Assembly (NCBI GenBank): GCA_026395335.1
Contig: JAPLYW010000015.1
Coordinates: 1 to 61,822 of the forward strand
Reading direction: 5' to 3'
DNA: 61,822 nucleotides
Source of the DNA: Candidatus Shapirobacteria bacterium
Lineage (GTDB): Bacteria; Patescibacteriota; Microgenomatia; PFEM01; JAPLYW01
Shown here: in pieces, positions 10,800 through 58,069 of the stretch
Position numbering within the stretch: position 1 is the stretch's first letter
How the letters are laid out: every line of letters starts with the position of its first letter
Position numbers and translations under genes: made by a program
Notes under the pieces: model-generated
What the model saw: the letters and a program-made list of their open reading frames with translations, nothing else
Told to the model about the DNA's origin: nothing
Database searches by the model: none

Positions 10800-10878
10800 C
10801 CAGAGGCTGCCAGATGAAAAAAGGTTTTTGAACAAAGTGAAAAGTTCTTATTTTAGATGGTAAACTTCATTTTCTTTT

Positions 10879-12700: not shown

Positions 12701-12711
12701 TAAATTTAGAA

Positions 12712-12757
12712 TAAGAACCTGTGTTTTGCACAGAACCTTGTTTTTCGTAAACTTAAA
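12712..12757 (+). repeat. Junction repeat, hairpin type (copy before fusA)
   Basis: TAAGAACC-TGTG-TTTTG-CACA-GAACCTTGTTTTTCG-TAAACTTAAA-ATG. Confidence 0.8.
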
Positions 12758-16176: not shown

Positions 16177-16188
16177 TCAAACTTAAGA

Positions 16189-16238
16189 TAAGAATCTGTC
16201 GCCTTAGGCGACAGAACCTTGTTTTTCGAAGAATCAAG
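16189..16238 (+). repeat. Junction repeat, hairpin type (copy before rpsJ)
   Basis: TAAGAATC-TGTCGCC-TTA-GGCGACA-GAACCTTGTTTTTCG-AAGAATCAAG-ATG. Confidence 0.8.
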
Positions 16239-23131: not shown

Positions 23132-23136
23132 AAAAA

Positions 23137-23189
23137 TAAGAACCCCCCGACGGTACGTCGGGAGAACCTTGTTTCTCGTAAAATTCGAA
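23137..23189 (+). repeat. Junction repeat, hairpin type (copy before rplF)
   Basis: TAAGAACC-CCCGACG-GTA-CGTCGGG-AGAACCTTGTTTCTCG-TAAAATTCGAA-ATG. Confidence 0.8.
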
Positions 23190-27002: not shown

Positions 27003-27761
27003 ATGATAACTATCAAAAGTAAAGAGGAAATTGAGATTATGCTTGAGGGAGGACGACGTTTAGCAGAAGTTATGGAAGAAGCGATTAATTTATCTAAAGC
27101 AGGTATTGCTCTTTATCAGCTTGAAGAAAATATTGAAAAATCAATTTTACAAAAGGGAGGACAACCTTCTTTTAAAATGGTGCCTAATTATCATTGGGCT
27201 AGTTGTTTGAATATTAACCAAGGTGTGGTTCATGGTATTCCTAATAAATACCATTTAAAAGAAAATGATTATCTAAGTTTGGATATTGGTTTTTTCTATA
27301 AAGATTTTCATACCGATATGTCCCGGACTATAAAAATTGAAAATGGGAAAGATAAAAAAAAAGAGGATAAATTTTTGGAAATCGGCAAAAAGGCTTTAGA
27401 AAAAGCTATTGAAGCAGCTAAATCCGGAAATCGCGTTGGTCATATTTCCGAAGCTATTGAAAAAACAGTCAGGATGGCTGGTTATAGTTCCGTAGAAGCT
27501 TTAACCGGGCATGGAATAGGTCATAGTTTACATGAAAATCCGCCAATCCCTTGTTTTTTGCCAGGTAATATTAAATCAACCCCTTTATTGAAAACAGGTA
27601 TGACTTTAGCTATAGAGGTTATTTATAATCAAGGTAGTTCCGATTTAGTTTTAGGTGAAGATAATTGGACGATTGAAACAGCTGATGGTAAATTAGCCGG
27701 ACTTTTTGAAGATACAGTGGCTATCTTTGAAGATAGGTCTATAGTTTTAACAAAAAAATAA
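27003..27761 (+). CDS. map: Methionine aminopeptidase type I
   Basis: VVHGIPN, DIGFFYKDFHTDMSRT, LTGHGIGHSLHE, AIEVIY. Confidence 0.95.
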   Translation: MITIKSKEEIEIMLEGGRRLAEVMEEAINLSKAGIALYQLEENIEKSILQKGGQPSFKMVPNYHWASCLNINQGVVHGIPNKYHLKENDYLSLDIGFFYKDFHTDMSRTIKIENGKDKKKEDKFLEIGKKALEKAIEAAKSGNRVGHISEAIEKTVRMAGYSSVEALTGHGIGHSLHENPPIPCFLPGNIKSTPLLKTGMTLAIEVIYNQGSSDLVLGEDNWTIETADGKLAGLFEDTVAIFEDRSIVLTKK

Positions 27762-27815
27762 GAACCTATCGAAGCGATAGAACCTTGTTTCTCTCCGGCG
27801 AAGCCGGATCGAAAT
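27759..27815 (+). repeat. Junction repeat, double-hairpin type (after map; its TAA is the map stop codon)
   Basis: TAAGAACC-TATCG-AAG-CGATA-GAACCTTGTTTCTC-TCCGGC-GAA-GCCGGA-TCGAAAT. Confidence 0.8.
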
Positions 27816-27850
27816 TAGCTTCTAGACTAAATGCTTTAGGTTTGGTAAAA

Positions 27851-27888
27851 TAAGAACCGTCCCCGACGTAATGTTGGGATAACCTTGG
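27851..27888 (+). repeat. Junction repeat, truncated hairpin type (immediately before infA ATG)
   Basis: TAAGAACC-GTCCCCGAC-GTAAT-GTTGGGAT-AACCTTGG-ATG. Confidence 0.7.
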
Positions 27889-28107
27889 ATGGATAAAAAA
27901 GAAAAAAAGTTAGAGTTTGAAGGTGAAGTGGTAGAAAGTCTACCAAATACTACTTTTCGCGTTAAGCTTAATGATACGCGGTTGGTTTTTTGTCATTTGG
28001 CAGGAAAAATGCGGCTGTATCATATAAAAGTTATGGCTGGGGATAAAGTTAGAGTAGAAATGACGCCTTACGATGAAACTAAGGGTAGAATTACACAAAG
28101 ATTTTAA
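27889..28107 (+). CDS. infA: Translation initiation factor IF-1
   Basis: 72 aa with [41 protein letters not shown]. Confidence 0.95.
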
Positions 28108-28166
28108 AATTCGAAATAAACAAGTTTGTTTCTCATAAAATTCGAAATAAACAAGTTTGTTTTTAA
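28107..28166 (+). repeat. Two tandem 30-nt hairpin-less junction-repeat units
   Basis: AAAATTCGAAATAAACAAGTTTGTTTCTCAT followed by AAAATTCGAAATAAACAAGTTTGTTTTTAAC, directly before the rpmJ ATG. Confidence 0.85.
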
Positions 28167-28170
28167 CAAA

Positions 28171-28284
28171 ATGAAAGTACAAGCAAGTGTAAAAAAAAGA
28201 TGTCGAAAATGTCGTTTAGTCCGGCGTCGCCGGAAGCTTTTTGTGATTTGCGAAAATCCGACTCATAAACAAAGACAAGGATAA
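28171..28284 (+). CDS. rpmJ: 50S ribosomal protein L36 (not in the ORF track; too short)
   Basis: Hand translation gives [37 protein letters not shown], the canonical L36 sequence and position between infA and rpsM. Confidence 0.93.
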
Positions 28285-29695: not shown

Positions 29696-30622
29696 ATGAT
29701 CGAACCAATTTTTAATATTAAAAGTGAACAAGAAACTGCCAATTTCGGTAAATTTATTATAGAACCTTTAGAGGAAGGTTTTGGCCAAACTCTAGGGAAT
29801 TCTTTACGTCGTGTTCTTTTGGCGGGTTTACCTGGAGCTGCCATTACCCAGATAAAAATTAATGGAGTCAAACATAAATTCTCGACTCTGGAAGGTATGA
29901 GCCAGGACATTATTGACCTGATTTTAAATTTAAAACAGGTTAGATTTAAGTATGATGGTGAAAAACCAGTCAAACTTGAATTAGAAAAAACCGGACCTGG
30001 ACAAATTAAGGCTGGTGATATTAAAACTTCAGCAGTTATTGAAGTTGTTAATAAAGACTTGGTTCTAGCTGATTTGGCTGATAAAAAAAGCAAATTAAAG
30101 TTAGAAATGGTGGTTGAAAAAGGTTTTGGTTATTTACCGGCTGAAACTAAAAAAAGCGAAAAATTAGGTGTAATGTCGGTTGATGCCGCTTTTAGTCCGG
30201 TTAAAAGAGTTAATTATCAAGTTGAATCAACTCGTGTTGGTCAAAGAACCGATCTTGATAAATTAATTTTAGAGATTACAACTGATGGGACAATTAAACC
30301 GAAAGAGGCGTTAAAAGCTAGCGCTAAGATTTTAATTGCCTTTTTCAATCAAGTTATTCAACCTAAAAAGGTTAGTTTAAAAGAAGAAGTGAAGCCTCAA
30401 GCATATGAAGAGGCGACAAAACTAACTTTAGAAGAGTTGGATTTGCCAACGAGAATTGTTAATGCTTTGCGTAAGACCGGCTATGGAACAGTTGCCGATC
30501 TTTTAGCTATTAATCCTGATAACTTGGCCAGAATTAAAAATCTGGGCGAAAAATCAATTAAAACTGTCCAGGCAGCTTTAGCCAAAAAGAATATCAAGTG
30601 GGAACCTGGAGAAAAAAAATAA
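29696..30622 (+). CDS. rpoA: DNA-directed RNA polymerase subunit alpha
   Basis: FGKFIIEPLEEGFGQTLGNSLRRVLL; C-terminal domain ELDLPTRIVNALRKTGYGTVADL. Confidence 0.96.
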   Translation: MIEPIFNIKSEQETANFGKFIIEPLEEGFGQTLGNSLRRVLLAGLPGAAITQIKINGVKHKFSTLEGMSQDIIDLILNLKQVRFKYDGEKPVKLELEKTGPGQIKAGDIKTSAVIEVVNKDLVLADLADKKSKLKLEMVVEKGFGYLPAETKKSEKLGVMSVDAAFSPVKRVNYQVESTRVGQRTDLDKLILEITTDGTIKPKEALKASAKILIAFFNQVIQPKKVSLKEEVKPQAYEEATKLTLEELDLPTRIVNALRKTGYGTVADLLAINPDNLARIKNLGEKSIKTVQAALAKKNIKWEPGEKK

Positions 30623-30778
30623 ACAAGTTTGTTTTTCGTAAAACTCGAATAAACAAGTTTTTCTCTCCGCCAACTGGCGGATCGAAATAAACAAGTTTGT
30701 TTTTTAGCAAAATAATGTTTTTATCAAGATAAGTAAGCTTGTTTTCACAGGCTCAAATAAACAAGTTTTTTTAATAAA
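30619..30778 (+). repeat. Array of five junction-repeat units filling the rpoA-rplQ spacer
   Basis: Units start at 30619, 30649, 30687, 30729 (degenerate) and 30757 with ATAA(A/G)nAAG(T/C)TT. Unit 2 carries TCTCCGCC-AACT-GGCGGATCGAAAT. Confidence 0.8.
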
Positions 30779-31231
30779 ATGAGACATCAAATTAAAGGTA
30801 AAAAACTTTCGCGCAATTCATCTCAAAGAAAGGCTTTGTTTAAAGGTCTGATAAACTCTTTGTTTATTCATGGGGCGATTGAAACAACTGAGAGTAAAGC
30901 CAAAGCGATTAGAGGTTTGGTTGATAAATTAATTACTAAAGGGAAAAAAGGTACTCTTCATTCTCGAAGATTAATTGGTGCTTTTTTACAGAACAAAAAA
31001 GTTGTTAATAAAATTGTTGATGAATTTGGGCCTCTTTTTGTTAAAAGAAGCAGTGGTTTCAGCCGGATGATTCGTTTAGGAAAAAGACGGGGAGATGACG
31101 CAATGATGGTTAAGCTGGAACTAATAGAAAAACCAGTAGTTAAAGTTGTAGAAGAAAAAGCTATTGTTACTAAAGCTAAAGATAAAAAGGAACAACCAGT
31201 TACTAAAATTGTAAAAACTAAGAAGAAATAA
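30779..31231 (+). CDS. rplQ: 50S ribosomal protein L17 with K-rich tail
   Basis: MRHQIKGKKLSRNSSQRKALFKGL, ETTESKAKAIRGLVDKLIT. Confidence 0.95.
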   Translation: MRHQIKGKKLSRNSSQRKALFKGLINSLFIHGAIETTESKAKAIRGLVDKLITKGKKGTLHSRRLIGAFLQNKKVVNKIVDEFGPLFVKRSSGFSRMIRLGKRRGDDAMMVKLELIEKPVVKVVEEKAIVTKAKDKKEQPVTKIVKTKKK

Positions 31232-31272
31232 GAACCTGCCTACGGCAGAACCTTGTTTTTCGAAGACTCAAA
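31229..31272 (+). repeat. Junction repeat, hairpin type (its TAA is the rplQ stop codon; ends at rplM ATG)
   Basis: TAAGAACC-TGCC-TAC-GGCA-GAACCTTGTTTTTCG-AAGACTCAAA-ATG. Confidence 0.8.
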
Positions 31273-31764
31273 ATGAAATTTAAAACTAAAGCTACCAAAG
31301 CTAACGAAATTAAAAGAGAATGGCATTTAATCGATGCCAAGGATCAGATTTTAGGTCGTATGGCTGTTAAAATCGCTTCATTGCTAATGGGTAAAGAAAA
31401 AACTTACTTAGTCAATTATTTGGATTGTGGTGATTATGTTGTAGTTATTAATGCCGAAAAGGTTCAAGTTACCGGTAGAAAGAGAGAACAAACGATTTTT
31501 TACCGTCATTCCGGTTATCCCGGGGGTTTTAAAGAAGTTAGTTTTAAACAGCAAATGGCTAAAGACCCAACTCAAATTATTCGTCATGCTGTTTCCGGTA
31601 TGCTGCCGAAAAATAAATTACGCGATATGAGACTTGCCAGATTAAAAATTTTTGCTGGTTCTAAGTATGATTTTGAAGATAAATTTGTGGTTAGCCCTAA
31701 AAAAGAAATTGTTTTAGATAAAGAAAAAGAAAGTAAAAAAGATGGAAAAACCAAAAAAGATTAA
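31273..31764 (+). CDS. rplM: 50S ribosomal protein L13
   Basis: REWHLIDAKDQILGRMA, GDYVVVINAEKV, YRHSGYPGG. Confidence 0.95.
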   Translation: MKFKTKATKANEIKREWHLIDAKDQILGRMAVKIASLLMGKEKTYLVNYLDCGDYVVVINAEKVQVTGRKREQTIFYRHSGYPGGFKEVSFKQQMAKDPTQIIRHAVSGMLPKNKLRDMRLARLKIFAGSKYDFEDKFVVSPKKEIVLDKEKESKKDGKTKKD

Positions 31765-32221: not shown

Positions 32222-32245
32222 TCTTCTGTAATAGATAATTTTTTC

Positions 32246-32258
32246 AAAGAGTTATAAT
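32246..32258 (+). promoter_or_regulatory. AAAGAGTTATAAT promoter motif, 5 nt before ATG (leaderless architecture)
   Basis: TATAAT at 32253-32258, then TAGTT, then ATG at 32264. Confidence 0.5.
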
Positions 32259-32263
32259 TAGTT

Positions 32264-32455
32264 ATGAAATATCTAAAATTTATATTTCTAAACATATTAA
32301 ATGTAGTTATCCTTTATTTAATAGCTAAATTCTTCTTTTATCGTTTTGTTTATGACGAAAGAACGGCTGGAAATTTTTTATTATGTGTAATACTAATTTA
32401 TCCACCTCTTTGTGTTTTTCTATTTTATAGACTTAAATCTAAACTCCACCAATAA
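32264..32455 (+). CDS. Small hydrophobic membrane protein, hypothetical
   Basis: 63 aa with two predicted TM stretches and its own promoter motif. Confidence 0.45.
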   Translation: MKYLKFIFLNILNVVILYLIAKFFFYRFVYDERTAGNFLLCVILIYPPLCVFLFYRLKSKLHQ

Positions 32456-32468
32456 ATTTCTTGTTTTT

Positions 32469-32481
32469 AAAGAGTTATAAT
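32469..32481 (+). promoter_or_regulatory. AAAGAGTTATAAT promoter motif, 5 nt before ATG (leaderless architecture)
   Basis: TATAAT at 32476-32481, then CAGTT, then ATG at 32487. Confidence 0.5.
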
Positions 32482-32486
32482 CAGTT

Positions 32487-32951
32487 ATGTCCTTTACTGA
32501 TTTTTTTATGGAGAAAGAAAATAAATCTTTAATTTTAACAATCACTCAGGCAGTAGCGATGGTTTTGGCTCTTTTTACCGGACCTTTAATATCCAGTAAT
32601 CTTTTTTTTAGCTTTTTAGCTCTTTTAGGTTTAGGTATTTGGATTTGGTCTTTTGTAATTATGGTTCGTGAGGGGAGCTATAATATTCTGCCAAACCTAA
32701 GTAAAAAAAATAAATTAGTAACTAAAGGTCCTTATCATTTTGTTCGCCATCCAATTTACACTGGTATGTTTTTATTAGCCGGTTCTCTTTTATTGAATTA
32801 TTTAACAGTTTGGCGAATTGGTTTTTTCTTAGTTTTATTATTCAGTACCATACTTAAGTTGGAAGAAGAAGAAAAGATTTTAAATAAAAGTTTTGAAGAT
32901 TACCATCAATATCAGAAAAAGACAAAACGTTTAATCCCTTTTGTTTATTAA
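32487..32951 (+). CDS. Isoprenylcysteine carboxyl / phospholipid methyltransferase (ICMT/PEMT) family membrane protein
   Basis: LVTKGPYHFVRHPIYTGMFLL...EEEEKILNKSFEDYHQYQKKTKRLIP. Confidence 0.7.
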   Translation: MSFTDFFMEKENKSLILTITQAVAMVLALFTGPLISSNLFFSFLALLGLGIWIWSFVIMVREGSYNILPNLSKKNKLVTKGPYHFVRHPIYTGMFLLAGSLLLNYLTVWRIGFFLVLLFSTILKLEEEEKILNKSFEDYHQYQKKTKRLIPFVY

Positions 32952-37310: not shown

Positions 37311-37384
37311 TCGGGGTGGCCGGTTCCGCCCCGGCGACCTCACGCACCCCATGCGTGCACTCTACCTATCTGAGCTACACCCCG
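37311..37384 (-). tRNA. tRNA-Pro (anticodon GGG) with a non-canonical T-loop; no encoded CCA
   Basis: Hand-folded cloverleaf: CGGGGTG/CACCCCG acceptor, GCTC/GAGT D-stem, CACGC/GCGTG anticodon stem, loop AT-GGG-GT, GCCGG/CCGGC T-stem. The T-loop reads GGCGGAA instead of TTCRANY. Confidence 0.75.
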
Positions 37385-44206: not shown

Positions 44207-44216
44207 GTATTAAAAA

Positions 44217-44520
44217 GCCTAGAAAGCTCATAAGCCAGATTTTGTTTAAACAGTCATCTATCTTTGCCCTCGAACATCGACACTCGGAAAAGACTCCTAA
44301 TAGCGTGTCAGTCGGAGGTTGCAGCGGGGAGGGTTACCTCGTTTCACCCCCTCCATAGCTTTAGGCGACGGAGGGACTCGTCTCTGTGGCCCTATCTAGT
44401 TCCAACTCACCAGGGGGTTGGAATGCCGTTTTGCAACGGCCACCCTGTCTTTTAGCTGTCTGGACTTTCCTCCCGCCTAAATATTTAATTTTTGGCGGGC
44501 AACTGTCCGGCTTTCTAGGC
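44217..44520 (-). ncRNA. rnpB: RNase P RNA (bacterial type A-like, compact)
   Basis: Minus strand contains GGGAGGAAAGTCCAGACAGC (P4 5' strand region) and ACAAAATCTGGCTTATGAGC (P4 3' strand). The P1 helix GCCTAGAAAGC/GCTTTCTAGGC closes the molecule. It is a GC-rich island in AT-rich DNA with a U-run after the 3' end. Confidence 0.88.
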
Positions 44521-49201: not shown

Positions 49202-50359
49202 ATGAAGAGAAAAATATTTTTAATCAGCGGCGGTTTAATTCTTTATTTAGTATCAGCGGGAATTGCTTATGGAACTTTTCATTATCTTAGTAGCAATGAT
49301 AATTTAATTTCCCCTGTAAAAAATTCTGGAAGTGGTCAATCCAAGATTGATCTTAGCGCACCTAAGACTGAGCAATGTCCGTTAAATGGTGCTTTATATA
49401 CTAAAGCAGAAGAACAAATTTGGGGGAAAAGACGACCTTTAAATGTGATGATTGAAAATCATATAGATTCTCGGCCTCAATCCGGACTTTCTAAGGCGGA
49501 TGTAGTTTATGAAGCTATCGCTGAAGGCGGCATTACCCGTTTTATGGCTGTTTTTTATTGTGGAGCTTCAGCTGAGGAAGTTACTATTGGTCCGGTTCGT
49601 TCTGCCCGTACTTATTTTATGGATTTTGTTTCAGAATATGGTGATTATCCTTTATATGTTCATGTTGGTGGAGCTAATCTTTCCGGTCCGGCTAATGCTT
49701 TAGGCCAAATTGGTGATTATGGTTGGTTAACTAAAGGGAATGATATGAATCAATTCTCTTTAGGTTTTCCGGTTTTTTGGCGTGATTATGAAAGAGTTGG
49801 GCATGAGGTAGCAACTGAACACACAATGTATTCAACTACTGAAAAACTTTGGGAAGTGGCCGCTAAAAGAGGTTTAAGCAATGTTGATGAAGAAGGTAAT
49901 AAATGGGATGAAAATTTTTCAGAATGGAAATTTAAAGATGATGAAAAACTGGAAAATCGTGGTGATAAAACTAGTATTGAATTCTCTTTTTGGAAAAATA
50001 ATGATGATTATACTGTTCGTTGGGAATATAACAAGGATTCCAATCAATACTTACGTTTTAATGCTAATCAGGTTCATAAAGATTTAGATACTGATTCACA
50101 GATTCAGGCAAAAACAATCATTATTCAATATATGAAAGAAAAAGGACCAATTGATGCAGTTAAACATATGCTTTATACCACTATAGGTACCGGTAAAGCG
50201 CTTATTTTCCAAGACGGTAAGGCTACAGAAGCAAATTGGACTAAAGAAAAAAGACAATCAAGAACTAAATTCACCGACAAAAACGGTAAAGAAATTTCTC
50301 TAAATCGCGGCCCAATTTGGATTGAAATTGTTCCTGTTGGTGGTGAAGTTAAATATTAA
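49202..50359 (+). CDS. DUF3048 (YerB-like) secreted/lipoprotein
   Basis: N-terminal TM/signal; PLNVMIENHIDSRPQSGLSKADVVYEAIAEGGITRFMAVF. Confidence 0.7.
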   Translation: MKRKIFLISGGLILYLVSAGIAYGTFHYLSSNDNLISPVKNSGSGQSKIDLSAPKTEQCPLNGALYTKAEEQIWGKRRPLNVMIENHIDSRPQSGLSKADVVYEAIAEGGITRFMAVFYCGASAEEVTIGPVRSARTYFMDFVSEYGDYPLYVHVGGANLSGPANALGQIGDYGWLTKGNDMNQFSLGFPVFWRDYERVGHEVATEHTMYSTTEKLWEVAAKRGLSNVDEEGNKWDENFSEWKFKDDEKLENRGDKTSIEFSFWKNNDDYTVRWEYNKDSNQYLRFNANQVHKDLDTDSQIQAKTIIIQYMKEKGPIDAVKHMLYTTIGTGKALIFQDGKATEANWTKEKRQSRTKFTDKNGKEISLNRGPIWIEIVPVGGEVKY

Positions 50360-50366
50360 AAAAACT

Positions 50367-50942
50367 ATGCTCCAAGATTTAATGGTTTCCAAAGTTCGGG
50401 CGAAACTTCTTCAGACATTTTTTGCACAGCCTAAAGAAATGTTCTATATTCGTCAGTTAGTGCGTTTAAATAACGAAGAGATTAATGCTATTCGTCAGGA
50501 ATTAAAACGGATGGAAAGATTGGATATGGTTAAAAAAGAAAACCGGGGGAATAGAATTTATTATTGGTTTAACAAAGAATACCCATTGTATCAAGAAATT
50601 CTTTCTATGGTTTGTAAGACTATTGGTTTGGGAGGAGAGATATTAAAGAAAAAAAATAAATTAGGCAATATTAAATATGCTTTAATTTCTGGTCGTTTGG
50701 CAAAGAGTTTAAGTCCAAGACCTGGAGGAGTAGACTTATTAATAGTTGGGGAAATTAATTTACCAAGTTTAGCAGTTATTATTCGGGAAGAAGAAAGTAA
50801 ACTAAAAAGGGAAATTAATTATAGTGTTATGACAAAAGAAGAATTTGATTTTCGTAAGAAAAGGAGAGACCCTTTTTTATTGGGCATTTTAGCTGATTCT
50901 AAAATTATGTTAATTGGAGAAGAAGAAAACTTGTTTGTTTAG
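50367..50942 (+). CDS. Winged-helix transcriptional regulator with a C-terminal nucleotidyltransferase-like remnant, tentative
   Basis: SKVRAKLLQTFF...YIRQLVRLNNEEINAIRQELKRMERLDMV (wHTH); GGVDLLIVGE. The ATG at 50367 is preferred over the ORF-track start at 50322, which overlaps the upstream gene. Confidence 0.45.
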   Translation: MLQDLMVSKVRAKLLQTFFAQPKEMFYIRQLVRLNNEEINAIRQELKRMERLDMVKKENRGNRIYYWFNKEYPLYQEILSMVCKTIGLGGEILKKKNKLGNIKYALISGRLAKSLSPRPGGVDLLIVGEINLPSLAVIIREEESKLKREINYSVMTKEEFDFRKKRRDPFLLGILADSKIMLIGEEENLFV

Positions 50943-50944
50943 GT

Positions 50945-51142
50945 ATGGCAAAACAAAAAATTATTAAAACCGGTCACAGTTTGGCCGTGACCGTTCCTTT
51001 TGAATTTGCTAAGTCTTTGGGAATAAAAGCCGGTCAAGAAGTTGAAGTAAAGATTGAACCGGAAACCGGTCGGGTTATCTACACTTTTTCCGGCAACAAA
51101 CAATTATCTCTTTCTGGAAATTTCATAAAAAAGGTAAAATAA
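50945..51142 (+). CDS. AbrB/MazE/SpoVT-type DNA-binding protein
   Basis: KTGHSLAVTVPFEFAKSLGIKAGQEVEV swapped-hairpin motif; 65 aa. Confidence 0.65.
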   Translation: MAKQKIIKTGHSLAVTVPFEFAKSLGIKAGQEVEVKIEPETGRVIYTFSGNKQLSLSGNFIKKVK

Positions 51143-51149
51143 ATCAAAG

Positions 51150-52520
51150 ATGAAATCACGTCGTTTTTTAATTTGGTTAATAATTATTTTAATTGTAGGT
51201 TCAATTTATGTTGATTTACCGACTAAAATCCATTTAAAATTTGATTGGTCTTTTAATCAGAAAAATTTAAGTTGGTTAAAAATAGATAAAGAAATCCAAC
51301 GTTCTCCAATTGATTTACAATTGGGGAGTAAAAATTTTCATAATGATTTAGAAATTAAAAAAGGTATTGATTTGGCTGGCGGAGCTCATCTGGTTTTTCA
51401 GGCCGATATGAAAGATGTTCCTGAAAGTAATCGTAATGAAGCAATTGAAGCAGCTAAAAATAATATTGAGAAAAGAATAAATCTTTTTGGTATTTCTGAA
51501 CCGGTTATCCAAACTTCTAAAATTAGTGAAGACTATCGTTTGATTGTTGAGTTGGCAGGTATCAAAGATATTAATCAAGCTATTGATTTAATTGGTCAAA
51601 CTGCCCAACTCGATTTTAGAGAATTATCCAAAGAATCAACTCAAGCTGCTATTCTTACGGATTTTAAAACAACCGGTTTGACTGGTAAAGATTTATCTAA
51701 ATCAGAAGTTAAATTTGATCCTAATAGCGGCCAGCCAAGAGTGAGTTTGGAGTTTTCTTCCCAAGGAGCTCAAAAATTTGCTGAAGTTACCGGTCGGAAT
51801 GTTGGCAAACCGGTAGCAATTTTTTTGGATGAAAATCCTATTGAAATACCTACTGTTAATGAGAAAATTAATGATGGTAAAGCTGTTATCGAAGGGAACT
51901 TTACGACAGATACAGCTAAAAATTTAGTAAAACTACTTCATGCCGGATCTCTACCGGTCCCTATTAAAATAATTGAACAGAGGAATGTTGGGGCAACATT
52001 AGGAGCAGAATCAGTTCAGCGAAGTCTTCAAGCCGGTTTGATTGGGTTAGGAATGGTAATTCTTTTTATGGCTATTTATTATGGATTTTTGGGAATTTTA
52101 GCTGATATTGCTTTGATTATTTACGGTTTGTTGACATTAGCTTTATATAAATTAATACCGGTTACTTTAACCCTACCGGGAATTGCCGGATTTATTCTTT
52201 CCATTGGCATGGCGGTTGATGCTAATATCCTGATTTTTGAGAGGATGAAAGAAGAAATAAGGGCCGGTAAAAGTAGAGCAGTCGCTATGGAATTAGGTTT
52301 CGGTCGGGCTTGGGATTCTATTCGCGATGCCAATGTTTGTACTATTATTACTTGTTTTATTCTTTTTAATCCCTTTAACTGGTCATTCTTGAATTCTTCA
52401 GGAATGGTTAGAGGTTTTGCTCTAACTTTGTTTTTAGGAGTAGTTTTAAGTTTGTTCACTGGAATTGTGGTAACGAGAACCTTAATAAGGACTTTTTACC
52501 GAAAGGAAAAAATTAAATGA
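51150..52520 (+). CDS. secD: Protein translocase subunit SecD
   Basis: GIDLAGGAHLVFQ, GEPVIQ-like ISEPVIQTS, VGATLGAES, C-terminal 6-TM domain. Confidence 0.94.
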   Translation: MKSRRFLIWLIIILIVGSIYVDLPTKIHLKFDWSFNQKNLSWLKIDKEIQRSPIDLQLGSKNFHNDLEIKKGIDLAGGAHLVFQADMKDVPESNRNEAIEAAKNNIEKRINLFGISEPVIQTSKISEDYRLIVELAGIKDINQAIDLIGQTAQLDFRELSKESTQAAILTDFKTTGLTGKDLSKSEVKFDPNSGQPRVSLEFSSQGAQKFAEVTGRNVGKPVAIFLDENPIEIPTVNEKINDGKAVIEGNFTTDTAKNLVKLLHAGSLPVPIKIIEQRNVGATLGAESVQRSLQAGLIGLGMVILFMAIYYGFLGILADIALIIYGLLTLALYKLIPVTLTLPGIAGFILSIGMAVDANILIFERMKEEIRAGKSRAVAMELGFGRAWDSIRDANVCTIITCFILFNPFNWSFLNSSGMVRGFALTLFLGVVLSLFTGIVVTRTLIRTFYRKEKIK

Positions 52521-52633
52521 TAAAGTGGATGAAATATAAATGGTTCTATTTCGAGTCTTCGAGAAACAAAACCATTTATTTCGATTTTTCTAAAAACAAG
52601 TTTCTTATTTTAAAAGGATATAAAAATGATTAA
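52517..52633 (+). other. Relic secF start fused to inserted repeat: a 38-codon bridging ORF from the secD ATGA overlap to a TAA overlapping the present secF ATG
   Basis: MIKWMKYKWFYF... duplicates the secF N-terminus MINWMKFKWFYF. The frame stays open through the 74-nt insert and ends in aATGATTAA. Confidence 0.6.
52552..52625 (+). repeat. Junction-repeat insert between the duplicated secF starts
   Basis: The reverse complement of 52549-52572 is TTGTTTCTCGAAGACTCGAAATAG, 21/24 identical to the rplM copy. A forward TCGATTTTTCTAAAAACAAGTTTCTT module follows. Confidence 0.7.
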
Positions 52634-53504
52634 CTGGATGAAATTTAAATGGTTTTATTTTTTAATCTCCGCTTTGGTGATTATTCCTGGTATGGTTTCT
52701 TTATTTATGTTTGGTTTAAAACCAGGTATTGATTTTACCGGTGGTAGTTTGCTGGAATATAAATTTTCCTCGCCAGTAAATATTGAAGATTTGCAAAAAT
52801 CTTTAACGGAAAAAGATTTTCAGGTTTATTCAATTCAGGAATCAGGTAATAATACTTATCTTTTACGGATGCCAAGTTTGGAAAAGGGGAAAGCTGCGGA
52901 AGTTAAAAATATTTTATCAGCAAAATTTAATCAAGTACCTGAAGAAATCCGTTTTGAAGTGGTTGGTCCGACTTTAGGCAAAGAACTTTTGACTAAAACA
53001 ATTGTGGCGATAATTTTGGCAGCCGCTTTTATTCTAGGTTATGTTGGCTGGCGTTTTAAAAATAATAAATTCGGTATTTGTGCAATTTTGGCCATGTTTC
53101 ATGATAGTCTTGTTATGTTGGGATCTTTTTCCTTATTAGGTTATTTTTTGGGAGTGGAAGTTGATACTCTATTCGTTACTGCGCTTTTAACAACTCTTTC
53201 TTTCTCTGTCCATGATACCGTCGTGGTTTATGATCGGATAAGGGAATCACAAAAATTATTTCCCAAAGTTGATTTTGAATCGTTAGTTAATAAAGCGATT
53301 ACGGAAACACTGTCGCGGTCTTTAAATAATTCTTTGACGATTATTTTTATGCTGATTGCTTTACTTTTGTTGGGCGGGGTGACAGTGAAATGGTTTGTGG
53401 CAGCTTTGCTGATTGGCACGGTTTCCGGAACTTATTCTTCAACTTTTACCGCTGCCCCGCTTTTGGTTCTTTGGGAAAATTTAGCCCAAAGAAAAAAGCA
53501 TTAA
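52626..53504 (+). CDS. secF: Protein translocase subunit SecF
   Basis: GIDFTGGSLLEY, FHDSLVMLG, SVHDTVVVYDRIRE. AAAGGA Shine-Dalgarno 7 nt upstream. Confidence 0.94.
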   Translation: MINWMKFKWFYFLISALVIIPGMVSLFMFGLKPGIDFTGGSLLEYKFSSPVNIEDLQKSLTEKDFQVYSIQESGNNTYLLRMPSLEKGKAAEVKNILSAKFNQVPEEIRFEVVGPTLGKELLTKTIVAIILAAAFILGYVGWRFKNNKFGICAILAMFHDSLVMLGSFSLLGYFLGVEVDTLFVTALLTTLSFSVHDTVVVYDRIRESQKLFPKVDFESLVNKAITETLSRSLNNSLTIIFMLIALLLLGGVTVKWFVAALLIGTVSGTYSSTFTAAPLLVLWENLAQRKKH

Positions 53505-53508
53505 AAAT

Positions 53509-53537
53509 TTGACTTTTTAATTAATTATCTTTATCAT
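53509..53537 (+). promoter_or_regulatory. Consensus-like promoter 4-7 nt before the ATGATG start
   Basis: TTGACT, 17 nt, TATCAT, TAAA, ATGATG. Confidence 0.5.
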
Positions 53538-53541
53538 TAAA

Positions 53542-54741
53542 ATGATGAAAAAAATAGCCATCTTTTTATCTTTTTTCCTAGGCCTTTCTTTCTTTTTTGT
53601 TCCCCAAACATTAGCAGCTGATAAACAGGCAACTGACTCTTCGAACACAAAAATTGTTGAGGTTAAAAAAGGTGAAGTTATTAATCATGATTTTTTTGCG
53701 GCTGGTTCTGATGTCAATATTAGTGGTTTAGTTAATGGTGATGTTTTTGCCGCTGGTGGCAATATTAATGTTGATGGCAAAATCAACGGAGACTTGATTG
53801 CCGGTTCCGGTAATATTGTGGTTAACGGTGAAGTTGTCGGTAATATGCGGGTTGGCGGAGGGACAGTCACTATTAATGGTTTGGTCGGTCGAAATGTAAC
53901 GGTTGGAGGTAGTAATGTTTTTATTGATGAAAAAGCCCAAATAAAAGGTAGTTTGCTTGGTTTTAGTAGTAATATTAAAGTTAATGGCTTAGTTGGAAAA
54001 GATGTCCGGATTTATGCCAACCAAGCCAATATCAATTCGACGGTTGGTGGCAATGTTCAGGGCTCAATGGCCAGTTTGATTCTAGATGCTAAAGCTAAAA
54101 TTTTAGGTGATTTGGATTATCAAGCTAAAACTGAAGCTCAAATAGTTCAAGGAGCCGTGGTTATGGGTAAGACCGTTTATCAGCCATTAGCTAATAATAG
54201 TAATAATTGGGCTAATTGGAAACCAGCTAAGATGATACCGGTTTTCTTTGGTCTTTATGGTTTAGGTCTTTATTTTGCTTTTGTTTCCATTTTAATGGCC
54301 TTAGTTTTTGGTTTGATTTTCCTTTACTTTTTCTCCAAGAGAATGGAAAACATGGCGGTTATTATCCGTACCAGATTTTGGGCTTGTTTGGGCTGGGGAT
54401 TGTTGATGCCGATTATCTTTCTTTTTATCATTATCTTTTTAGCTATTAGTTTAGTTGGCATCCCTTTTATCTTTATTGTTTTGCCTCTTTTTGGTGTTTT
54501 GATTTATTTTGCCAAAATTTTTACGGCTTTTGCTTTAGGCCGAAGAATTTTAGGAGAAAAGAAAGCCTGGGGTTGGGTTTTAGCTCTTGGCCTTTTAATC
54601 TATTTTGCCTTAGGTCTTATTTGGGGAATAAATGGCATTGCCGGTTGTGTTTTTACCACAGTTGGTTTGGGAGCTTTCTTTCTTGATCAGAAATCCCGTC
54701 GTCAACCCGCTAAAGTTATTGTAAATACCTCAAAAAAATAA
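53542..54741 (+). CDS. Bactofilin-like (polymer-forming beta-helix repeat) protein with N-terminal signal peptide and C-terminal polytopic membrane domain
   Basis: Signal peptide ending FFVPQTLA/AD; repeats of the type GDVFAAGGNINVDGKINGDLIAGSGNIVVNGEVVGN; 5-6 TM helices after residue ~230. Confidence 0.55.
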   Translation: MMKKIAIFLSFFLGLSFFFVPQTLAADKQATDSSNTKIVEVKKGEVINHDFFAAGSDVNISGLVNGDVFAAGGNINVDGKINGDLIAGSGNIVVNGEVVGNMRVGGGTVTINGLVGRNVTVGGSNVFIDEKAQIKGSLLGFSSNIKVNGLVGKDVRIYANQANINSTVGGNVQGSMASLILDAKAKILGDLDYQAKTEAQIVQGAVVMGKTVYQPLANNSNNWANWKPAKMIPVFFGLYGLGLYFAFVSILMALVFGLIFLYFFSKRMENMAVIIRTRFWACLGWGLLMPIIFLFIIIFLAISLVGIPFIFIVLPLFGVLIYFAKIFTAFALGRRILGEKKAWGWVLALGLLIYFALGLIWGINGIAGCVFTTVGLGAFFLDQKSRRQPAKVIVNTSKK

Positions 54742-54770
54742 GATCATATAATCCTCATAAATTTTATTTA

Positions 54771-54825
54771 TTTCGATCCGCCAACTGGCGGAGAGAAACA
54801 AGGTTCTGCCGAAGGCAGATTCTTA
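54771..54825 (-). repeat. Junction repeat, double-hairpin type, minus strand (its TAA is the cca stop codon)
   Basis: Minus strand reads TAAGAATC-TGCC-TTC-GGCA-GAACCTTGTTTCTC-TCCGCC-AGTT-GGCGGA-TCGAAA. Confidence 0.8.
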
Positions 54826-56247
54826 TTTAATATCTTTAGTGATTTGTTTAAGATGTTTAAGAAGCGCTGATTTTTCGTTTTTAATTTTTTTATCAACCAC
54901 AGCCTCAAAAAGCTGGTTTAAAAGTTGGCCGATTAATGGGCCTGGAGTGATCTTAAGAGTTTTCATAATATCTAATCCGTTAATTTTTAAATCAGTGATC
55001 AGGAAGGGCTCTTTTTGGACTTCAATAATCTTTTTCTTGAAAAGCTCCATACGCCAAGAGGTTTCTCTGGCACCGCCGCCTAATCGGTCGGCAGTTCTCA
55101 ATTGAATCATATCTTCTATATTTTTTTTGCCAACATTTTTGATAAAGCGGCGAATAGCTTTATCGGTTTGATTTTCATCAACTGAAAATTGATGCCAACG
55201 GACTAAAGTTATTAATCTTTCCGATTGAATTTTAGAAAGTCTTAATTTTTCAGCAATATTTTTTGCCAAAGAAGCACTAATCATTTCATGATTATAAAAA
55301 GTGATTACTCCATCTTTTTGGACGCGGGCAACTGTTGGTTTGCCTACATCATGAAGTAAAATAGCCAGATTAACAATGGGATCGATTGATTTGGATGATT
55401 TTAAAGATTGGACTGAATGATTACCGACATCCAAAATATGATGACGGCCTGGGCTTTTTTGCTCGACACCAAAACCTTTTTCAACTTCCGGTAAAATTTT
55501 TTCCGCTAAGCCGGAATTACGTAAAAGCAAGTAACCATCAGCAGCGAAAGGGTAGGATAAAAGTTTTAATAGCTCATCTCTTACTCTTTCGGCACTAATT
55601 TTATCTAAAAGGTTAACGTTATCTTTAATGGCTTGGAAAGTTTTTTCTTCAATTGAAAAACCTAATTGAGTAGTAATACGTATGGCTCGCAACATCCTCA
55701 AAGCATCTTCTTGAAATCTTTCTCGAGTATTACCAACGGCTTTAACTAATTTATTTTTAATATCTTTTTGTCCTTGATGAGGATCAATTAATTCAAAATT
55801 AATAATATTTTTTTTATCATCAATAATTGGTTTTAAAGCCATGGCATTTATCGTAAAATCGCGGCGGATTAAATCTTCTTTTAAAGTTTTTCCCCAACTG
55901 ACTTTATCTGGATGACGACCATCAGTATATCCCATTTCTTTACGGAAAGTGGTAATTTCGTAAACTGGAATTTTGACACTGGAGGTTTTCCCTTGCCTAT
56001 CGGCAGGCAGGTTTTTTTCATCGACAGGATTAATAATACCGACGGTGCCAAAATTATTATCATAAAAACCATCAGGGAAAAGACTTAAGATAATTTCTGG
56101 TGAGGCATTAGTAGTGAAATCCCAATCATGAATTGTTTTATCCATCATTAAATCACGAACGGCTCCACCAACAATATAAATTTCCTGATTATTTTCCAAA
56201 AATTTTTTAATAATTTCTTTAACAAATGGCGGTAAATTAATTCTCAT
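54823..56247 (-). CDS. cca: CCA-adding tRNA nucleotidyltransferase with HD domain
   Basis: IYIVGGAVRDLMM, RRDFTINAMA, HD block LLHDVGKP. Consistent with the tRNA gene lacking an encoded CCA. Confidence 0.92.
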   Translation of the reverse strand: MRINLPPFVKEIIKKFLENNQEIYIVGGAVRDLMMDKTIHDWDFTTNASPEIILSLFPDGFYDNNFGTVGIINPVDEKNLPADRQGKTSSVKIPVYEITTFRKEMGYTDGRHPDKVSWGKTLKEDLIRRDFTINAMALKPIIDDKKNIINFELIDPHQGQKDIKNKLVKAVGNTRERFQEDALRMLRAIRITTQLGFSIEEKTFQAIKDNVNLLDKISAERVRDELLKLLSYPFAADGYLLLRNSGLAEKILPEVEKGFGVEQKSPGRHHILDVGNHSVQSLKSSKSIDPIVNLAILLHDVGKPTVARVQKDGVITFYNHEMISASLAKNIAEKLRLSKIQSERLITLVRWHQFSVDENQTDKAIRRFIKNVGKKNIEDMIQLRTADRLGGGARETSWRMELFKKKIIEVQKEPFLITDLKINGLDIMKTLKITPGPLIGQLLNQLFEAVVDKKIKNEKSALLKHLKQITKDIK

Positions 56248-56306
56248 TTTAATTATATTTTATCTTTTAAAAAAAGAGCTTATAAATGTAGTATAATTTT
56301 ACCACA

Positions 56307-56360
56307 ATAAGGAAACCCTTGTTTTTCGAAGATTCAAAATAAGGAAACCCTTGTTTTAAA
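56307..56360 (+). repeat. Junction repeat, tandem hairpin-less form, in the recJ 5' UTR
   Basis: AATAAGGAAACCCTTGTTTT occurs at 56307-56326 and 56338-56357, separated by TCGAAGATTCA. TATAAT lies at 56292-56297. Confidence 0.75.
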
Positions 56361-58019
56361 ATGAAGTGGCATATTTTAGCTAAAATCAAAGAGCAAAAAA
56401 CAAAATTCAAAAATGAAGAAATAATTAAAATTCTTCTGAAAAATCGTGGTCTGAAAACCCCAAAAGAAATTGATAATTTTTTAAATCCCAAAAAGCCTGA
56501 AGAATTAAGTTTAAAGGAAGTCGGGCTTGATCCTTCAGAGATGAAGAAAGCAATTAAAAGAATTCAAAAAGCGATTGAAAAAAAAGAAAAAATTATTGTT
56601 TATGGTGATTATGATGCTGATGGTCTTTCTGGGACGGCGATTTTATGGGAAGCCCTTCATAACTTAAAAGCTCAAGTATTGCCTTTTATTCCAAGAAGAG
56701 AAGATGGGTACGGTTTAAAGATTGAAAAAATTAAAGAATTAGCCAGGGAAGGAGTTGGCTTGATTATTACGGTTGATCAGGGTATTGTTGCTAATCAGCA
56801 AGTGAGAGAAGCCAATAAACTCGGTATTGATGTCATTATCACCGACCATCATATTTTAAGTGACAAAAAACCAAAAGCTTTAGCGATTATTCATACGACT
56901 CAGTTAGCCGGTTGCGGTGTGGCCTGGTTTCTGGCGCAAGAATTATTTTTTATTTTTAAAGGAGAAAAAAATGAAAAAGGTTTAGATTTAGTAACAATAG
57001 GGACGATTGCCGATATGGTTCCTTTACTTGGTCCAAACCGCTGTTTAATGAAATACGGATTAAAGCTTTTACAGAAAACTAAACGCCCAGGCCTTTTGGC
57101 TTTATATGATTTTGCTAGTTTAAAAAAAGAAACCATTGATACTTTTGAGGTTAGTTATATTATTGGCCCGCGCTTAAATGCCGTTGGCCGTATGGATGAT
57201 CCTATGGAAGCTTTGAGACTACTTTGTACTTTCAATGAAGATCAGGCGATTAATTTGGCTCAAAAGATTAATCAAAAAAACGAAGAAAGAAAATCTTTAA
57301 TGGGGAAAATGACGATTTATGCTCGCAATCTTTGGTTGAAACAAGACCAAGAAAAATCTTTAATTTTTATTGATCATAATTCTTTCCATGAAGGAGTTAT
57401 TGGTCTAGTAGCTGGTAAATTAATGGAAGAGTTTTATCGACCGGCAGTTATAATTTCTCGGGGAGAAAAGTTTTCCAAAGGTTCAGCCCGTTCCATTAAT
57501 GAGTTTAATATAATTGAGGCGGTTAGAAGCTGTGCGGAAATTTTAGGACCTCACGGTGGACATCCTAAGGCTGCTGGTTTTACCATTGAAACCGAAAAAA
57601 TAACTCTTTTTAAGGAAAAACTGATGCTTTTGGCTGAAGAAAAATTAAAAGGTCAAAAGCTCTCACCGACTTTGAGAGTTGATTTAGAATTAGGTTTGGA
57701 AAATTTAACTTTTGATTTTTATAAAGATCTTGCTAAATTTGAGCCTTTTGGAGAAGGTAATCCTCAACCAGTTTTTTTAACCAAAGATGTTAAAATGGCT
57801 GATGCCAGAATTGTCGGTAAAGAAAAACAGCATTTAAGTTTGAAATTAAGAAGTTTAAGTGGCAAAATAATTTTTGAAGGGATTGGTTTTAATCTTGGAA
57901 AATTTTATTCAGATTTAAACCCGGATAAAAAAATTGATTTAGTTTATCAATTATTTTTAGACGAATGGCATAATGAAAAACATTTAAAGTTGAAAATAAA
58001 AGATTTAAAAACCTTTTAA
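56361..58019 (+). CDS. recJ: Single-stranded-DNA-specific exonuclease RecJ
   Basis: VYGDYDADGLSGTAIL, ITVDQG, VIITDHH, GGHPKAAGF. Confidence 0.94.
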   Translation: MKWHILAKIKEQKTKFKNEEIIKILLKNRGLKTPKEIDNFLNPKKPEELSLKEVGLDPSEMKKAIKRIQKAIEKKEKIIVYGDYDADGLSGTAILWEALHNLKAQVLPFIPRREDGYGLKIEKIKELAREGVGLIITVDQGIVANQQVREANKLGIDVIITDHHILSDKKPKALAIIHTTQLAGCGVAWFLAQELFFIFKGEKNEKGLDLVTIGTIADMVPLLGPNRCLMKYGLKLLQKTKRPGLLALYDFASLKKETIDTFEVSYIIGPRLNAVGRMDDPMEALRLLCTFNEDQAINLAQKINQKNEERKSLMGKMTIYARNLWLKQDQEKSLIFIDHNSFHEGVIGLVAGKLMEEFYRPAVIISRGEKFSKGSARSINEFNIIEAVRSCAEILGPHGGHPKAAGFTIETEKITLFKEKLMLLAEEKLKGQKLSPTLRVDLELGLENLTFDFYKDLAKFEPFGEGNPQPVFLTKDVKMADARIVGKEKQHLSLKLRSLSGKIIFEGIGFNLGKFYSDLNPDKKIDLVYQLFLDEWHNEKHLKLKIKDLKTF

Positions 58020-58069
58020 ACAAAATTAAAATGACCGAAAGATTTAAAAACCTTTTAAATAAAATTAAA
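57999..58069 (+). repeat. 39-nt-period tandem duplication spanning the recJ stop and the RSH start
   Basis: AAAGATTTAAAAACCTTTTAAA(C/T)AAAATTAAA occurs at 57999-58030 and 58038-58069, with 31/32 identity. Confidence 0.9.

Follow-up and report, generated by a model that had tools for sequence, protein, structure and literature searches.

The locus described here raises the question of how the secD-secF junction of an uncultured bacterium came to contain two starts of secF, and of what has become of the translational coupling between the two genes. The junction lies on a 61,822-nt contig of a metagenome-assembled Candidatus Shapirobacteria bacterium; this whole stretch of DNA is referred to below as the window. 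SecD and SecF form a 1:1 heteromeric complex, and the persistence of stop/start overlaps is commonly explained by selection for the coupled, stoichiometric translation of complex subunits. We consider it likely that a secD/secF pair which ancestrally overlapped at ATGA underwent a lineage-specific structural mutation, for which a one-step origin is favoured and which would have left a translational relay as its consequence. Sequence comparison shows the arrangement to be a derived state, reproduced in an independent assembly, made of modules of a repeat family, and datable to between the split from the nearest sequenced relatives and the divergence of the strains. The secD-secF arrangement is a real evolutionary scar, not a new system. 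The features at the junction are these:

51150-52520, + strand: secD, 456 aa in the open reading frame (ORF) list; the orthologous SecD proteins of relatives L001, L014, L015 and L020 have 449-457 aa and Pfam SecD domains.
52502-52507, + strand: Shine-Dalgarno-like AAAGGA, within the secD 3′ end and 9 nt upstream of the relic ATG, kept in all close relatives.
52517-52551, + strand: copy 1 of the secF 5′ end, ATGATAAAGTGGATGAAATATAAATGGTTCTATTT, the relic of the ancestral secF start, ATGA-coupled to secD.
52517-52633, + strand: bridge ORF, 38 aa, MIKWMKYKWFYFESSRNKTIYFDFSKNKFLILKGYKND, running from the relic ATG through the insert to the TAA at 52631-52633.
52552-52625, - strand: insert between the copies, 74 nt (or 52552-52612 if the Shine-Dalgarno sequence was duplicated), absent from nine relatives.
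52613-52618, + strand: AAAGGA Shine-Dalgarno sequence, 7 nt before the functional secF ATG, unpaired in the predicted fold of 52500-52660.
52626-52660, + strand: copy 2, ATGATTAACTGGATGAAATTTAAATGGTTTTATTT, the working secF 5′ end.
52626-53504, + strand: secF, 292 aa, intact, with the length and N-terminus (MINWMKFKW) seen in relatives.

The initial annotation of this DNA had reported that the two copies agree at 31 of 35 positions, and this holds: in 100 locally shuffled windows the highest 35-mer identity found within 250 nt was 23-26 of 35, and 31 was never reached. A repeat search lengthens the pair to 37 nt at 89% identity (52515-52551 and 52624-52660), with a repeat period of 109 nt and 105 nt between the secD stop and the secF ATG. 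As also noted initially, and as can be seen directly in the sequence, copy 1 keeps the classical overlap, its ATG sharing ATGA (52517-52520) with the secD TGA (52518-52520). The deposited SecF (P0002) carries the Pfam domains Sec_GG and SecD_SecF_C. This PGAP call has 288 aa and begins at the internal Met5 (52638 instead of 52626); an exact-sequence look-up of the 292-aa SecF gave no match, the deposited form starting at Met5. The relatives and the spacing of the Shine-Dalgarno sequence favour the ATG at 52626, and with it the 292-aa protein, as the probable start of secF.

The state of the junction before the event can be read from relatives, which were obtained from scans of species-representative genomes and Joint Genome Institute (JGI) metagenomes, together with exact-protein look-ups of SecF homologues. 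Junctions were recovered from nine distinct relatives with SecF proteins 70-91% identical to that of the window: L014 and L015 (91%), L003 (90%), L020 and L021 (88%), L004/L005 (81%), L006 (75%) and L001/L007 (70%). The alignment of related junctions that had been proposed as a check gave a uniform answer, since every one of the nine has a single, uninterrupted secF start that overlaps the secD stop as ATGA, with no insert; the 109-nt arrangement of the window is therefore derived. In these relatives AAAGGA stands 12-13 nt upstream of the overlapped start, and we infer that their secF initiation relies on the ATGA overlap. In more distant genomes (L002 and L008-L011, SecF identity 60%) secD and secF are separated by some 50 nt of unrelated sequence, and nothing is duplicated. 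In blastn alignments, window 49626-52551 corresponds to L003 103-3035 and window 52618-55066 to L003 2993-5400, so that the one junction of the relatives (L003 2993-3035, for example) aligns to both copies in the window, which is what a duplication in the window lineage would be expected to leave as its signature. A seam between two diverged genomes was considered and rejected, because both flanks are nearest to the same relatives (for L003, 80% on the secD side and 83% on the secF side).

The same arrangement recurs in L013, a 2,446-nt Logan contig from run SRR20698651 that is 99.18% identical to window 52353-54797. Of the 20 differences between the two, none falls within 52517-52660, where copies and spacer are the same base for base. 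As L013 was assembled independently, the arrangement is no misassembly, and this alternative, which the initial annotation had left standing, is removed as far as is possible without reads; the arrangement thus exists in at least two slightly different strains. As a separate observation on the same region, a gene for a 399-aa membrane protein with no Pfam match lies between secF and cca (window 53542-54741) in the window, L003, L013, L014 and L021 and is missing from L015 (3133-3154).

The 74 nt between the copies consist of modules of a repeat family that recurs at gene junctions in the window and is described below. The insert reads in the family's forward sense on the - strand, antisense to secDF, and its parts are as follows:

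52536-52579, no strand: inverted repeat, 16 bp, with one arm in copy 1 (ATAAATGGTTCTATTT) and the other in the insert (AAACAAAACCATTTAT).
52553-52569, - strand: module GAGTCTTCGAGAAACAA, reverse complement of the start-proximal family sequence TTGTTTyTCGAAGAnTC.
52574-52584, - strand: module ATTTATTTCGA, reverse complement of TCGAAATAAAT.
52594-52610, - strand: module AAACAAGTTTCTTATTT, in which both outer-stem arms abut and the GC hairpin is missing.

All three family modules (TTGTTTyTCGAAGAnTC, TCGAAATAAA and the AAATAAG...CTTGTTT arms) are significantly represented on the - strand of the insert, which puts the earlier view that it was built from repeat modules on a solid statistical footing. 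Module GAGTCTTCGAGAAACAA has three other matches in the window at up to two mismatches (16219, 31253 and 56319), all on the opposite strand, with none expected, and its core is identical at 17 of 17 positions to both copies in the sister sequence L016. The figure of 21/24 given initially for the reverse complement of 52549-52572 against the copy upstream of rplM (31250-31273) was too high; the ungapped identity is 19/24, with 16/17 in the GAGTCTTCGAGAAACAA core. Module ATTTATTTCGA has a second exact copy at 54766-54776, in a two-hairpin cassette, and TCGAAATAAA occurs five times in the window. The sequence AAACAAGTTT is located at 52594-52603, and the pattern AAACAAGKTTC-N0-20-TTATTT has four matches against 0.01 expected, the other three enclosing hairpins. 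The insert is without a GC-rich inner hairpin and is antisense to secDF, whereas all other copies are sense. On the - strand the spacer opens with the stop-proximal end of a unit (AAATAAG) and closes with the start-proximal one (CTCGAAGACTCG), and has the appearance of a full family array minus its hairpins.

A decayed simple tandem duplication was rejected as the source of the insert, which resembles neither the last 74 nt of secD (P = 0.72) nor secF nt 36-109 (P = 0.60). Only its last 15 nt or so, the AAAGGA region, could be duplicated native sequence. A Smith-Waterman comparison of the insert with the window returned mainly low-complexity matches of AT-rich sequence. The inverted repeat at 52536-52579 folds at -12.4 kcal/mol on the + strand (z -4.2) and at -16.8 kcal/mol on the - strand (z -5.8). 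No sigma-70-like promoter was found in the insert and no terminator-like site in 52517-52660, the terminator scan flagging a family hairpin at 54805-54819 on both strands. Rfam 15 returned no family at the junction, a permissive scan of 52400-52750 giving only a 16.9-bit match (gathering score 211).

Of the Shine-Dalgarno sequence at 52613-52618, which had been called new, the presence stands and the newness is doubtful. The secD 3′ end also holds AAAGGA, at 52502-52507, which is the ancestral ribosome-binding context of secF, and the downstream motif may be a duplicate of it, in which case the duplication would be about 50 nt long; the AT-rich sequence here does not discriminate.

When compared with the sister sequence (ATGATTAAC/TTGGATGAAATTTAAATGGTTATATTT, in L014/L015), copy 1 has four changes and copy 2 has one, a count that fits a relic freed from constraint. 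At four-fold-degenerate sites of secF the divergence between the window and L014/L015 is 0.34-0.37. From these figures and the divergence of the copies, the event is younger than the split from L014/L015 and much older than the 0.8% divergence of the strains.

The family to which the modules belong is a modular, intercistronic one, with cassettes at these positions in the window:

12710-12757, + strand: cassette.
16187-16238, + strand: cassette.
23135-23189, + strand: cassette.
27757-27815, + strand: cassette.
27849-27890, + strand: cassette.
28105-28172, + strand: family modules without the GC hairpin.
30608-30778, + strand: cassette.
31227-31272, + strand: cassette.
54764-54828, - strand: cassette.
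56290-56357, + strand: family modules without the GC hairpin.

The core unit folds into a 7-bp outer stem AAAUAAG/CUUGUUU (one of whose pairs is U.G), an AAC/AAC internal loop of 3x3 and, innermost, a hairpin rich in GC. The sequence of this hairpin varies from copy to copy, four of its pairs showing compensatory changes, but its flanks do not vary. It is usually followed by TCGAAGAnTCAAAATG, or by a second hairpin and TCGAAATAAAC. Hairpin-bearing units are all sense to the host transcript, cassettes often span exactly from stop codon to ATG, and the genes downstream of them are without a Shine-Dalgarno sequence. A gathering-threshold Rfam scan of the whole window matched no part of the family. 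The sole match of that scan was a class A RNase P RNA (44215-44518, - strand, 119 bits). A degenerate family-like sequence also lies at 10817-10852, upstream of an M29 aminopeptidase gene (10879-12108) placed between rpsG and fusA in the str operon region.

The initial annotation took the secF junction as evidence that the family moves or expands at gene junctions, and this is supported by its absence from orthologous intergenic regions of sisters. Family modules are absent from about 55 kb of sister DNA around secDF (L003, L014, L015, L020 and L021) and from 34 kb of ribosomal-protein loci of the more distant L017-L019, and are present in the ribosomal-protein locus of sister L016. In L016 the sequence TTGTTTCTCGAAGACTCAAAAT (461-482 and 544-565) lies inside the 3′ coding end of rplQ (GVVSRRLKIT) and is repeated downstream in an intergenic cassette. 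The window has gained, relative to L003/L014/L021, the two-hairpin cassette at the cca 3′ end (54764-54828), which is 91-92% identical to pieces of the rpoA-rplQ and rplQ-rplM cassettes. The loop of its second hairpin is inverted with respect to the near-identical hairpin at 30668-30683 (AGTT instead of AACT, in the family's forward sense). Also gained by the window, relative to L014/L015, is a module of 12 nt in the recJ leader, TCGAAGATTCAA, which has a direct repeat of 20 nt, AATAAGGAAACCCTTGTTTT, in perfect copies on its two sides (56303-56357). The leader of L014/L015 has one diverged copy, AATAAAGAAAATCTTTTTT, and no module, which makes 56303-56357 a second family insertion flanked by a duplication.

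In L017/L019 the overlap is 17 nt long between rpoA and rplQ and takes the ATGA form at rplQ/rplM and infA/rpmJ, and only a few bases part rpsH from rplF, whereas in the window each of these pairs is separated by a cassette:

rpoA/rplQ: window 30623-30778, L019 9960-10030.
rplQ/rplM: window 31232-31272, L019 10440-10460.
infA/rpmJ: window 28105-28172, L019 7560-7575.
rpsH/rplF: window 23132-23189, L019 2700-2710.

The secD-secF junction is unlike the other split junctions in that the break lies 35 nt inside the downstream gene, which was rescued by duplication of its start. Cassettes turn tight or overlapping junctions into structured spacers, as is seen in the ribosomal protein operons, in the recJ leader, at secDF and at the 3′ end of cca. 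On these features we would class the family as a novel form of short interspersed hairpin repeat of intergenic regions; literature searches returned nothing relevant on intergenic hairpin repeats in the Candidate Phyla Radiation or on relic starts at coupled junctions. Separately, a 32-nt direct repeat (31/32) with no family module lies at the junction of recJ and a RelA-SpoT-like gene, one copy (57999-58030) comprising the last recJ codons and the spacer and the other (58038-58069) codons 3-13 of the next gene. L014/L015 share this layout at about 75-80% identity, which points to an old duplication of the junction whose copies were re-homogenised in the window lineage.

How, then, did the family enter secF? 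The left junction of the insert lies at TATTT(C), the reverse complement of GAAATA in the family sequence TCGAAATA, a microhomology of 5-6 nt. A single microhomology-guided template switch, or illegitimate recombination, at secF could produce the observed order. The nascent strand would have left secF at TATTT(C), copied a family array elsewhere in inverted orientation, and re-entered upstream of the secF start, with the junction then recopied. Following such an event secF would be translated from its own AAAGGA-N7-ATG. Of this one-step switch and a duplication followed by a cassette, the single template switch is the more likely.

The consequence for translation turns on the bridge ORF. As was pointed out initially, the old start opens a frame of 38 codons that runs stop-free to the TAA at 52631-52633; the bridge ORF consequently overlaps the secF start by 8 nt, as ATGATTAA (52626-52633). 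The bridge frame is the only one of the six frames of the insert that is stop-free. In prokaryotes the -4 nt overlap is the commonest arrangement and the -8 nt overlap the third commonest, overlaps of -4, -1 and -8 are the geometries associated with termination-reinitiation, overlapping pairs are enriched for heteromeric complexes, and in reporter work a spacer of about 20 nt abolished coupling (PMC10666635). With 105 nt between the secD stop and the secF ATG, direct secD-secF coupling has therefore been lost. The two stop/start overlaps found here, -4 for secD/bridge and -8 for bridge/secF, are co-directional and have the geometry given for termination-reinitiation (PMC10666635). The relic ATG is almost certainly used by ribosomes, as it retains its ancestral context. 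Ribosomes ending secD would reinitiate at the relic ATG through the -4 overlap, go on through the 38 codons of the bridge, and stop 8 nt into secF, where the -8 overlap would allow a second reinitiation; a two-step termination-reinitiation relay would then replace the direct coupling that was lost, the bridge peptide itself presumably being without function. Of the initial suggestion that coupling to secD may be retained, the geometry is borne out, and retention via the bridge ORF is plausible.

Several points weigh against this account. The one-step mechanism is so far a proposal. No full-length donor of the insert was found in the window with 23- and 39-nt patterns at up to three mismatches or with a strict three-module pattern, which matched only themselves or the 54766 cassette. 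The recJ/RelA-SpoT-like duplication carries no family module, so duplication and cassette acquisition can be separate events. Of the four positions private to copy 1, three carry the base of the more distant L004/L005, for which chance is the sole explanation offered. As regards the relay, a stop-free bridge frame would arise by chance with a probability of 0.10 in shuffles and 0.21 in real intergenic 74-mers, and two of the three possible phases would terminate at or beside the secF ATG regardless. As secF has a good Shine-Dalgarno sequence of its own, the relay is possibly irrelevant.

An origin in two steps is a tentative but serious alternative. A tandem duplication across the junction (of about 52 nt, for example, from the secD Shine-Dalgarno sequence to secF nt 35) would first have given a neutral, short bridge ORF, and the family array would have been acquired later, in the spacer that separates the relic from the second Shine-Dalgarno sequence and is not essential. 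The repeat at 57999-58030 and 58038-58069, found in L014/L015 at lower identity, indicates that family-free junction duplications arise and persist. AAAGGA precedes both copies, the family normally sits in stop-start spacers, and the period of 109 nt can be written as 52 + 57, a 57-nt insert keeping the bridge frame. A duplication-only intermediate is, however, absent from the nine relatives; apart from AAAGGA, the 13-15 nt that lead up to the two ATGs show no clear homology; and the whole insert is unlike the secD 3′ end. The left junction, moreover, lies in the TATTTC/TCGAAATA microhomology, as a direct join of secF to family sequence predicts. The initial claim that insertion of the repeat produced a long target duplication therefore stands for the insertion and for the duplication, its mechanism being one of two viable ones given that family-free junction duplications exist.

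On another, tentative view the bridge ORF is no neutral relic and has been kept by selection as a coupling leader, so that SecF synthesis would require ribosomes coming by way of the bridge, in the manner of the tap leader peptide on which repA of plasmid R1 depends. The relic ATG, the ATGA overlap and the open frame have outlasted four substitutions in 35 nt, the frame used is the only open one of six, and its stop at a -8 overlap is inside the termination-reinitiation window; translation would melt the 52536-52579 hairpin, and SecD and SecF form a 1:1 complex. An open-frame probability of 0.1-0.2 is nevertheless unremarkable, and the secF Shine-Dalgarno sequence is strong, well spaced and predicted to be unpaired. 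The whole-junction fold (52500-52660) is no stabler than shuffles (z -0.29), unusual stability being confined to the local 44-nt inverted repeat, and the only two available sequences are near-identical.

A bolder reading, which we think improbable, would combine these elements. The family would be an undescribed non-autonomous mobile or self-propagating element of the Candidate Phyla Radiation that favours the stop/start overlaps of coupled genes and spreads by template-switch or RNA-mediated copying, leaving long target duplications of variable length. The secF scar would be the one insertion encountered before its traces had faded, and the bridge would be selected for SecD:SecF stoichiometry.

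Conventional transposition, by which an element like a miniature inverted-repeat transposable element (MITE) or a repetitive extragenic palindromic (REP) sequence entered secF at codon 12 and staggered cleavage duplicated the target site, is quite improbable. Host direct repeats do flank family-derived DNA, a second case exists in the perfect 20-nt repeat around TCGAAGATTCAA (56303-56357) that is absent in L014/L015, and family copies have been gained in the window lineage. Transposases, however, give duplications of fixed length, and the flanking repeats here are of 35-50 nt, of 20 nt, and of at most 5 nt (rpsH/rplF, infA/rpmJ). The ends of the insert (CGAGTC... and ...CTTATTTT) are not terminal inverted repeats, and the insert is a mosaic of partial modules, not an element of unit length. 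In the family the hairpins vary and the flanks are conserved, the opposite of REP elements; and Pfam found no transposase, RAYT or reverse transcriptase among ten selected window ORFs without obvious function.

That collapsed or chimeric reads at a repeat gave a false duplication is very remote: the contig is indeed metagenome-assembled and the region holds repeat-family sequence, but the 109 nt recur base for base in a contig of a different run that differs at 20 other positions, the copies differ at 4/35 sites, unlike assembler stutter, and both flanking genes are intact and of full length. Translational bypassing of the kind known from phage T4 gene 60, by which ribosomes that had started at the relic ATG would take off from copy 1, land on the identical codons of copy 2 and leave the second ATG unused, has next to no likelihood, for although matching codons (AAA TGG TT. 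TAT) stand in both copies, a hairpin starts at the potential take-off site and a hop would give a normal SecF, no stop codon follows the take-off codon, the gap is 109 nt against 50 nt in gene 60, copy 2 is preceded by its own Shine-Dalgarno sequence and ATG, and the hop is not needed for anything.

The putative relay, as the favoured consequence of the event, can be set beside known systems. Termination-reinitiation pairs (ATGA, ATGNNTGA) resemble secD/relic at -4 and bridge/secF at -8 in geometry, in being co-directional and in belonging to the operon of a heteromeric complex (PMC10666635). Such pairs are direct overlaps of two genes, whereas the putative coupling here would pass through a non-functional intermediate ORF made by mutation. 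The tap-repA leader of plasmid R1 and the repY-repZ leader of IncI/IncB plasmids share the geometry of a short upstream ORF that ends at or over the downstream start, and may deliver ribosomes or open structure. These leaders are conserved and controlled by antisense RNA, features not seen in the bridge ORF, which is a recent relic.

The insertion event itself resembles microhomology-mediated template switching and templated insertion (quasipalindrome or slipped-strand events), since a direct duplication brackets DNA from another locus next to the TATTTC/GAAATA microhomology and a 16-bp inverted repeat; in the present case the templating is deduced from similarity to the family alone. The family, like REP, BIME and REPIN sequences, consists of short multi-copy hairpin units between operon genes and at 3′ ends, forms mosaics and varies in copy number between lineages. 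REP/REPIN sequences have a conserved palindrome and RAYT-dependent mobility, whereas in the family the flanks are conserved (AAAUAAG..AAC / AAC..CUUGUUU), the hairpin is free and units fill stop-start spacers exactly; a conserved palindromic core is absent from the family, and no RAYT was found by Pfam among the ten selected ORFs without obvious function in the 62-kb window. MITEs (Correia/NEMIS, RUP, ERIC) share with the insert a small size, non-coding sequence, multiple copies and, in some cases, co-translation with host ORFs, but the insert has no terminal inverted repeats or target-site duplication of fixed length and its content is mosaic and truncated. By these tested features the repeat family appears to be neither REP/REPIN nor MITE, and it is a more novel object than the secDF scar.

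Two further features of the window were seen. A tRNA at 37311-37384 (- strand; Rfam RF00005, 44.5 bits) has the apparent anticodon GGG (Pro) and an unusual T-loop, with GGCGGAA in place of UUCGAAU; neither ARAGORN nor the gathering-threshold scan of the whole window picked it up, and it is conserved in L016. A 26-nt repeat, TTTTyAAAGAGTTATAATyAGTTATG (92%), lies at 32241-32266 and 32464-32489 before two consecutive small genes, and resembles two copies of one promoter (-10 TATAAT), each followed by only a very short leader.

The secD-secF junction provides a natural and datable broken overlap, of which both the ancestral and the derived states have been sampled. The derived state presents two routes by which a downstream gene may survive such a break: it can have its own Shine-Dalgarno sequence, or it can be reached through a relay ORF that overlaps by -4 and -8. 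Nowhere else is the lineage-specific spread of hairpin cassettes in a very small, streamlined genome so plainly recorded. If the family is not mobile, the locus would still be a useful example for annotation, as the relic start could mislead start-site prediction; if it is actively mobile, few short interspersed repeats would have been characterised before it in the Candidate Phyla Radiation.

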